Shown here: piece by piece, positions 51,911 through 52,988 of the stretch | Position numbering within the stretch: the stretch's first letter is position 1 | Layout: the number at the start of each line of letters is the position of its first letter | NCBI GenBank assembly: GCA_964402405.1 | Contig: CAYOCE010000001.1 | Span: 435-64,434 of the forward strand | Origin: an uncultured Hyphomicrobiales bacterium | GTDB lineage: Bacteria > Pseudomonadota > Alphaproteobacteria > UBA7879 | Reading direction: 5' to 3' | Length of the DNA: 64,000 bases | The notes under the pieces: model-generated | The model's input: only the letters and a program-made list of their open reading frames with translations | Databases searched by the model: none | What the model was told of the DNA's origin: nothing | Position numbers and translations under genes: made by a program

Positions 51911-52198
51911 AATATTCTTTCCTTTGAGATAGAGGACTTAAGGGTTTAACTCTTAAATCTAGCTATTGATAAATATTTGTCAGCAATTTCTGATGGATTA
52001 GGGGTTTGTGTAAATGCTGTGGGTGTTTTATCTCATTCACCACAGCTGCCGCAGTCTGGGTGAAAATCACCAAGACTACAAAATTTGTAGCTTTATTACA
52101 TTCAATCCCTGAATAACCCATCAGAAAGATTGATTCAGAGATTTTTAGATCCCCATGTTAACCATACGAATGGCATGTTCAGTCATAGAATCCTTTTC

Positions 52199-52774
52199 TT
52201 ATACAGCTTCCACGGCATAAGAAGGAAGCGAAATATGCATCTCTCGCCCTAAAAAGGTTAACAACAGTTGAACACGCTGTTTATCACTCATAAGCTCTAA
52301 TACACCTGTGTGGTCTTTAAAGACGCCCTCTAATACACGAACTTTATCACCTTTTGTGAACGTCGCCAAGCTGTTTACAGAAACGATCCCGCTCTCTATT
52401 TCTTGTGATTTTAAATCCTCAATAATTTGCATCGATAGGTATGCAGGATGTTTATCGCTTTCCATTAATAAATAAGACACACCCCGGGTTCCATTGATAC
52501 TGCGCCACCTGGTAGTTTCTAAATTCACTCCCACAAACAAATATCGAGGGAACAATGGCGCCAAGACTTCTTCCACCTTGCGTGCGTGACGGCGCAGTCT
52601 TTTAAATCTTGGTAAATAAACCTCAAACCCTTGATCAAGTAAATTCTTTTGGGCTATGAGTTCTTTTGAAGGTTGTGTATAGGCAACGCACCAATTGGTC
52701 AGAGAGGGATCTTCGTGAGATGTAGTAATATTCCTTAGCTTTTTTTCCTCCAAAGTATTTTGGAAAATTGCCAT
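52199..52774 (-). CDS. NusG-paralog transcription antiterminator (RfaH/UpxY-like) at the head of the polysaccharide locus
   Basis: NGN domain (WCVAYTQPSKE...GFEVYLPRF) plus a KOW motif (FTKGDKVRVLEGVFKDHTGVLE). It is followed by a 288-nt untranslated spacer before pseB. Confidence 0.7.
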   Translation of the reverse strand: MAIFQNTLEEKKLRNITTSHEDPSLTNWCVAYTQPSKELIAQKNLLDQGFEVYLPRFKRLRRHARKVEEVLAPLFPRYLFVGVNLETTRWRSINGTRGVSYLLMESDKHPAYLSMQIIEDLKSQEIESGIVSVNSLATFTKGDKVRVLEGVFKDHTGVLELMSDKQRVQLLLTFLGREMHISLPSYAVEAV

Positions 52775-52909
52775 TTAGAGCACCCCTTAAAAACCAGAAA
52801 ACAAAATTATGTTCATGAACAAAACTTATCTTAAATTGTCACACTAGTCAACGGTACCTTGAAATTTTTTATGTTCAACTGCATTTCCTCTACTTTAAAA
52901 GAAATGAGT

Positions 52910-52937
52910 CCTCTTTTCCAAAATTTTGGAAAAGAGG
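52910..52937. terminator. Perfect 28-bp palindrome between the upstream GT-B gene and the NusG paralog (terminator or operator)
   Basis: cctcttttccaaaattttggaaaagagg equals its own reverse complement. A T-rich tract follows on the minus strand. Confidence 0.5.
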
Positions 52938-52988
52938 AACCACCGACTACAGTTTATAAAATATAAGTAAAACTTTCTGACTTACGAT

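Follow-up and report, generated by a model that had tools for sequence, protein, structure and literature searches.

In E. coli, RfaH is recruited at ops (GGCGGTAGnnTG, part of the JUMPStart element), in which positions 3–8 form a small hairpin in the non-template strand, G5 and T6 are read by RfaH, and contacts to the paused polymerase are made by T11 and G12 (10.1101/324400); for no RfaH other than that of E. coli is the recruitment mode known (PMC7593976). Wang et al. 2020 (PMC7593976) found 18% of rfaH genes to be alphaproteobacterial and described clusters of cis-encoded RfaH which adjoin envelope genes, one of them tied to an HTH regulator. The idea that less autoinhibited RfaH forms occur beside long operons is also already known, from a 2026 preprint which surveys no ops sites in other genomes (PMC13015549). 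Among the other NusG paralogs, LoaP requires a small leader RNA hairpin (PMC12691694), and in Bacteroides pause hairpins aid the loading of UpxY at opsX sites, which was contrasted with E. coli ops (Saba et al. 2024, PMC11685472).

Here we analysed a 64,000-nt stretch of DNA (the window), in which an RfaH-like gene heads a polysaccharide gene cluster. Our main reading, to which we assign a probability of roughly three in four, is that an RfaH-family factor, normally partnered by a MarR-like protein, loads at a module of RNA hairpin and ops-like element and thereby lets the polymerase complete a long polysaccharide operon. The site shares with that of E. coli both the ops core and its placement in the leader of a polysaccharide operon that is long and AT-rich; however, E. 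coli rfaH is encoded elsewhere in the genome, whereas here the gene lies directly upstream of its own ops, and a covarying RNA hairpin abuts ops here, whereas no pause hairpin is ascribed to the ops pause in E. coli (PMC11685472). In Bacteroides, too, the polysaccharide operon opens with the gene of the paralog that serves it, UpxY, whose site likewise joins a non-template-DNA motif to a nascent-RNA hairpin directly upstream (PMC11685472), but that site precedes upxY in the 5′ leader, and the one found here lies downstream of the paralog gene. The LoaP/dfn leader (PMC12691694) shares the cis-encoded NusG paralog and the small conserved hairpin, yet the ops core is present here and a NusA-dependent intrinsic terminator is not evident in the leader. 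Going by the published description alone, the relatives of this locus would belong to the RfaH cluster ‘CL4’ (Wang et al. 2020, PMC7593976), being likewise paired with an HTH gene (MarR-like) among envelope-biogenesis genes; the HTH gene is however deleted in the window, and that paper holds no description of a recruitment element. Cis-encoded RfaH-like genes beside envelope operons are therefore not new in themselves, but in the literature searched we found no description of an alphaproteobacterial ops, of an ops core fused to a covarying hairpin in the RfaH clade, or of an ops fixed just after the rfaH stop codon. Peculiar to the window itself are the deleted partner gene, the C6 form of ops and a second, window-specific hairpin.

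The locus and its RfaH-like protein

The genes at the head of the locus are arranged as follows:
52989–54155, minus strand: 388-aa open-reading frame upstream of the rfaH-like gene, with sub-threshold glycosyltransferase matches only, separated from the rfaH-like frame by a gap of 214 nt
52199–52774, minus strand: RfaH-like NusG paralog of 191 aa, in which residues 25–191 correspond to the 166–168 aa of homologs
51911–52198: spacer of exactly 288 nt from the rfaH-like stop to pseB
50900–51910, minus strand: pseB (TIGR03589, 508 bits)
27233–51910, minus strand: presumed target operon of 29 co-directional genes, the first being pseB

The rfaH-like open-reading frame is real and stands, as the original prediction had it, at the head of the locus, a run of 29 co-directional polysaccharide genes, and the 288 nt given in that prediction for the spacer are exact. 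The presumed operon contains pseudaminic-acid-type and other nucleotide-sugar genes, methyltransferases and glycosyltransferases, has two gaps only of more than 100 nt, and stops against a convergent trpS; downstream of the element described below it is ~24.7 kb long, AT-rich and tightly packed. A GC content of 28–36% in the polysaccharide run, against 40–48% in the flanks, suggests horizontal acquisition of the cluster. The AT-rich cluster occupies positions 28000–50000 of the window, and a second low-GC stretch (33–38%) is found at 4–10 kb (4000–10000). A Shine-Dalgarno sequence of its own, which many targets of RfaH in E. coli lack, is present at pseB. A pattern scan returned no terminator-like site in the 288-nt spacer from the rfaH stop to pseB; a weak promoter-like match at 51983–51956 lies downstream of ops, and transcripts from there would miss the element, though promoter-like matches in this region equal the number in shuffles and carry no weight. 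The upstream neighbour, which had been called a GT-B gene, is present but only weakly glycosyltransferase-like, every family score being below its cut-off (for example, BFO_1060 family glycosyltransferase, 38.8 bits vs. a cut-off of 200); it may be functionally part of the sugar locus though transcribed separately.

Pfam reports a NusG NGN domain in the 191-aa frame (57.8 bits) and no KOW domain, and the protein aligns over its full length, KOW region included, to both RfaH and NusG. Amongst the NCBI curated NusG-family models the best score was that of RfaH (TIGR01955, 113 bits, curated cut-off 144.5), followed by UpxY (NF033644, 74.8 bits, cut-off 100), housekeeping NusG (TIGR00922, 67.7 bits, cut-off 135.7) and LoaP (NF033641, 48.7 bits, cut-off 125), all four being sub-cut-off scores. 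The neighbours are polysaccharide genes with no ribosomal-protein context; no upxZ is adjacent, the next gene being pseB, and a UpxZ-like inhibitor is absent here, which sets the protein apart from the UpxY clade. A profile built from 25 family members scored 80 bits against the RfaH chains in the PDB and ~49 against NusG. BLASTP against E. coli proteins gave 56.6 bits for RfaH and 38.9 for NusG, using sequences that we take to be those of E. coli, of which the RfaH one agrees with the PDB alignment. There are 1605 homologs in the database, the best 58–71% identical, and those with names are called RfaH and come from Holosporales-like, Rhodospirillales and Bradyrhizobium genomes, which fits the 18% alphaproteobacterial share reported earlier (PMC7593976). 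No further NusG-family gene was found within the window. Combining NGN and KOW, nearer to RfaH than to housekeeping NusG and encoded outside the secE-nusG-rplK context, the protein is, by its sequence, a specialised paralog of an alphaproteobacterial RfaH clade, in the same subfamily as E. coli RfaH by best score, and not a housekeeping NusG. The original prediction of a specialised NusG paralog therefore stands, the RfaH model outscoring NusG in a context of polysaccharide genes, and the comparison it proposed with RfaH, UpxY, LoaP and NusG puts RfaH first, though below the cut-off.

The hairpin-ops module

Three features in the spacer concern the module:
52054–52079, minus strand: stem-loop GUCUUGGUGA-UUU-UCACCCAGAC, candidate nascent-RNA pause hairpin, with covariation
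52038–52053, minus strand: ops-like element TGCGGCAGCTGTGGTG, a block shared with related loci
52016–52046, minus strand: second hairpin GCUGUGGUG...CACCCACAGC, whose 5′ arm overlaps the 3′ half of ops

Comparison of the spacer with orthologous loci, which had also been proposed, revealed a conserved motif in the leader between the rfaH-like gene and pseB. After the rfaH stop the loci share a block of the form GUCUUGGUG-loop-CACCCGGAC, then TGCGG(T/C)AGC, which in the window reads ...CACCCAGAC TGCGGCAGCTGTGGTG (52076–52038). The module lies 44–148 nt (median 69) past the rfaH stop in ~65 of 79 related loci (species-level); a pattern search on the gene's strand found 61 sequences, comprising 60 of the 79 related loci and the window, and four further loci have an exact ops. 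The homologous position is occupied in relatives by TGCGGTAGCGTG or by the 12-mer of E. coli itself, the ops of the module being exactly E. coli GGCGGTAGCGTG in four related loci, many Bradyrhizobium and Rhodospirillales copies read TGCGGTAGCGTGG, and the alphaproteobacterial consensus retains G2–C9, T11 and G12 of ops. In the window a diverged ops, TGCGGCAGCTGTGG (52053–52038, core GCGGCAGC at 52052–52045), directly follows the 23-nt hairpin in the leader of the presumed target operon, on the non-template strand. Compared with the E. coli sequence it has T1, C6 and one extra base before TG, and with C at the critical position 6 and an altered TG spacing it is among the most diverged copies; the C6 form is common to the window's closest relatives.

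The original prediction stated that GGCGGTAG is missing and expected a recruitment element other than ops. The first statement is literally true, as the window copy differs at positions 1 (T) and 6 (C) and by the extra base, but the diverged core is there, and the expectation is overturned, the spacer element being a diverged ops core, TGCGGCAGC. Exact and 2-mismatch searches for ops similarly gave nothing in the leader and a match count equal to chance, the actual element carrying 4 mismatches and so lying beyond a 2-mismatch search. No Rfam family matched at either threshold, JUMPstart included: at the gathering score there was no match in the window or in 11 related loci, and JUMPstart (RF01707) had no match at E ≤ 10 in 51800–53100. 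A 2-mismatch ops-like match in an internal gap of the run (42818–42829) is unsupported by the covariance model and was discarded. A 52-aa frame with an ATG that spans the element (51963–52121, minus strand) was rejected as coding, since differences in loop length are not confined to multiples of three and the stem changes are compensatory. In L080, a relative, gene callers set a 27-aa frame over the element, which we judge spurious.

The hairpin is conserved along with ops. All 62 extracted copies fold, the 3′ arm of the stem ending 0–2 nt before ops, with a mean energy of −11.9 kcal/mol (−7.2 after shuffling of the 5′ part), and compensatory pairs occur at four basal stem positions. A covariance model built from 20 copies, the window's among them, scores 56.3 bits at this seed member and 9.1 at the next-best site in the window, and across all sources gives 70 matches at E ≤ 0.01 in 67 of the 83 searched. 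In the resulting alignment 85.8% of stem cells are paired against 77.9% in shuffles, a value reached by none of 500 shuffles, with 50 double-sided stem changes against 14 expected and 30–52% pairing in slid controls; the alignment was fitted to the structure by the model, so these figures lean towards the structure, and independent folding agrees with them. The CACCC of the 3′ arm is invariant in sequence and not merely paired. In 27 of 70 copies the stem can be extended into ops positions 1–3, and in the window, which is one of these, three further pairs can do so; this resembles the ‘escape duplex’ of UpxY (PMC11685472).

The two spacer hairpins named in the original prediction both exist, but neither is the conserved one, and on their own they do not exceed chance, as 7-bp stems are common here (18 inverted pairs in 1.3 kb). 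One of them is the second hairpin listed above, for which inspection by eye showed nothing corresponding in the closest relatives, L080–L083; its arms resemble those of the conserved hairpin and it may be a degenerate duplicate of it. The other, ctacaaaatttgtag, was rejected, having a 1-nt loop and merely abutting the conserved stem.

The linkage of gene and element holds in both directions. A 19-nt pattern, TCACCCRGACTGCGGYAGC, was scanned over metagenome contigs without reference to any gene and returned 120 contigs, 94 of them with at least 700 nt upstream. An RfaH-like frame lies just upstream of the element in at least 75 of these 94 matches: 73 have the strict RfaH motif and end 47–176 nt (median 71) upstream of the element, and at least two others, whose motif is a variant, are clearly homologous to RfaH. 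The remaining contigs may be targets acting in trans. Copies of the module without an adjoining rfaH-like gene were also seen in L002 (8386–8439), L041 (11582–11624) and L079 (11502–11536) and in the metagenomic L105, L106, L126 and L131, one such copy following an rfbB-like gene; these may mark additional operons served in trans.

Base-reading residues and the mode of recruitment

The ops bases are read in E. coli by the side chains K10, R16, H20, R23 and R73 (10.1101/324400). At these positions the window protein has Q, I, N, D and R, with R73 alone kept. F56 and R138 (E. coli numbering) are kept as well, the low-GC clade also keeps R73 and Q24, and the high-GC relatives keep K16, H/N20, R23 and Q24 and have lost R73. 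Residue 23 appears to track ops base 6, with phylogeny as a confounder and with exceptions: beside C6 copies it is Asp/Glu in 13, Ala in 3, Gln in 1 and Arg in 2, beside T6 copies Arg in ~100 and Asp/Glu in 3. The pairing would be chemically sensible, since thymine O4 takes the hydrogen bond of Arg and cytosine N4 can donate to Asp.

These residues bear on an alternative in which the hairpin is the main recognition element, read as RNA in the manner of LoaP, and GCGGYAGC serves mainly as a pause signal. Most of the residues that read ops in E. coli have been replaced in the clade, the NGN domain of the family has an invariant basic motif, RRHARK, and the unvarying CACCC arm supports an RNA reading, just as LoaP requires its small leader hairpin (PMC12691694). 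The ops core is however far more strictly kept than a generic pause requires, its base 6 co-varies with residue 23, the high-GC relatives retain at K16, H/N20, R23 and Q24 the readers of G5 and T6 in E. coli, and LoaP is the paralog whose model scores lowest, all of which makes recognition through RNA unlikely.

The C-terminal domain raises another question. Of the autoinhibition residues, I93 is kept, F130 is L and E48 is A, and in E. coli RfaH the substitution E48A relieves autoinhibition (PMC13015549). The KOW loop, T-F-L-G-R, is NusG-like (F-L-G-R aligns with I-F-G-R of NusG); in RfaH the Rho-contact loop I-F-G of NusG is replaced by L-I-N (PMC7593976), and a loss of Rho binding is therefore not evident here. 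Two AlphaFold runs (25 and 94 sequences) gave mixed secondary structure with a pLDDT <50 for the C-terminal domain, and no confident alpha-hairpin. Together with the report that monomorphic RfaH homologs adjoin long operons (PMC13015549), these features would agree with a constitutively active, NusG-like factor that works independently of any site, the module being a regulatory pause or attenuator, or an element of RNA processing or stability. We regard this as decidedly improbable, as it leaves unexplained both the two-way linkage between gene and element and the identity with functional E. coli ops in several genomes.

The upstream flank, the partner gene and the proposed mechanism

Four features lie between the upstream gene and the conserved part of the rfaH-like gene:
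52909–52938, minus strand: perfect 30-bp palindrome, terminator-like, 51 nt after the stop of 52989–54155
52823–52851, minus strand: predicted sigma-70-type promoter, conserved in an alignment with nine relatives
52810–52821: perfect 12-bp palindrome TGTTCATGAACA directly after the −10 hexamer, candidate operator
52699–52774, minus strand: relic of the partner gene, the first 24 codons of the frame, with N- and C-terminal remnants

The perfect palindrome that had been placed at 52910–52937 is indeed perfect, but is 30 bp long and not 28. It has a 13-bp stem, a 4-nt loop and a U-rich tail CUCAUUUCUU, folds as RNA at −23.2 kcal/mol (z = −5.1), is unique in the window with no matches in 100 shuffles, and was flagged as terminator-like by the pattern scan; with its stable stem and then a U tract downstream of a stop codon, it is best read as the predicted intrinsic terminator of the upstream gene, insulating the rfaH promoter. 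Its perfect symmetry exceeds most terminator stems and it sits just upstream of the rfaH promoter, but that it serves the module by binding a protein or as a recruitment element is very improbable, and it was rejected as the latter, because it has no counterpart in any of the relatives' aligned upstream regions, which retain promoter, operator and ops, because it has a U-rich tail just past a stop codon, and because the conserved operator is a different sequence. The long 5′ untranslated region described in the original prediction thus resolves into terminator, promoter, operator and Shine-Dalgarno sequence.

The promoter, with −35 TTGACT (52851–52846), a 17-nt spacer and −10 TAAGTT (52828–52823), was predicted when the window's flank was aligned with the DNA upstream of the partner gene from nine relatives, the same motif being present in L080–L082. 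The 12-bp palindrome after it has no second copy in the window and is found a single time in each related locus, and its half-sites GTTCA/TGAAC are kept at partner-rfaH operon promoters across Alphaproteobacteria, at a spacing of 0 in the low-GC clade and of 5 in high-GC genomes (GTTCA-N5-TGAAC), the latter often having 2–3 half-site copies that overlap the −35 hexamer. It looks like the operator of the lost MarR-like partner, a site which the window retains although the presumed regulator is gone.

In most related loci this partner gene, encoding a winged-helix product of 192–230 aa, precedes rfaH with a 4-nt ATGA overlap (for example, L001 5453–6031, L027 5333–5995 and L080 2426–3004), and its product scores 57–62 bits with the ‘MarR family EPS-associated regulator’ model, below the cut-off of 88. 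The winged helix is N-terminal, and the C-terminal ~90 aa have no family match or solved relative. A MarR-like partner gene was not found elsewhere in the window. What is present is a relic within the rfaH-like frame, whose homologs start at window residue 25: it consists of the partner's first 49 nt from its ATG and its last 27 nt. The N-terminus reads MAIFQNT against MAAFQNT in the partner, L001 agreeing at 16 of the first 20 nt, and in another frame of the extension LHLTKIPL, followed by a stop, resembles the partner's C-terminus LHISKVTP with its stop; the ancestral rfaH start, ATGA in relatives, is CTGA here (52702–52699), the ATG having become CTG. As both partner ends are retained within the extension and the ancestral ATG is now CTG, the comparison indicates that partner and rfaH are fused, the partner's ATG having come into the frame of rfaH through an internal deletion of ~503 nt. 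Among metagenomic sequences, the four nearest relatives (L080–L083) all keep the partner, of which the short contig L083 shows the 3′ end. The rfaH-like gene also occurs without a partner in L008, L012, L014 and L015 (Holospora undulata, two Legionella-labelled MAGs and Fluviispira), and no hairpin-ops module was found within 400 nt downstream of it in these four.

By analogy with E. coli RfaH and Bacteroides UpxY, the preferred reading of RfaH loading at the hairpin-ops module implies the following course of pausing, loading and antitermination. Transcription would start at the conserved promoter (52851–52823) and traverse rfaH, and at 145 nt beyond the stop codon of that gene the polymerase would meet the module and pause, exposing the ops-like bases of the non-template strand with the nascent-RNA hairpin ending directly upstream of them. 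A pause at T11 would leave the RNA stem ending 11–12 nt behind the 3′ end, as in hairpin-stabilised pauses. Loading of the RfaH-like protein onto the halted polymerase would follow; once there, the protein would keep NusG off and counter both pausing and Rho-dependent termination, and the modified polymerase would complete the ~24.7-kb AT-rich operon from pseB. Against this we count the sub-cut-off RfaH score, the four replaced ops-reading residues and the diverged ops copy, and also the NusG-like KOW loop, the promoter-like match at 51983–51956 and the Shine-Dalgarno sequence of pseB.

A further proposal, which we put forward tentatively and consider doubtful, is that rfaH makes up a self-priming cis unit together with its loading site, and that the low-GC subclade has re-specified the contact between base 6 and residue 23. 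In such a unit the hairpin would hold the ops pause at a conserved 44–176 nt past the rfaH stop codon, and the ribosome finishing RfaH would release the protein beside the very polymerase to be modified; the re-specification would have consisted of a change of ops base 6 from T to C and of residue 23 from Arg to Asp/Glu. If true, this unit would be the proposed ‘ancestral cis recruitment’ step of RfaH evolution, directly testable here.

RfaH is a model for how a general elongation factor turns operon-specific. The ops core of E. coli serves a large alphaproteobacterial clade as well, which joins it with a type of hairpin so far described for Bacteroides UpxY, and places the loading site right behind the factor's own gene. 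The loci form a natural series, from an exact ops to the C6 variant in which the contacting residue has changed from Arg to Asp, and from partner-bearing loci to one that lacks the MarR-like gene; cis loading, assistance of pausing by the hairpin and a switch of specificity could be tested on it. For the genome itself, the prediction is that expression of a surface sugar of the pseudaminic-acid type would hinge on one small gene and one 40-nt element.
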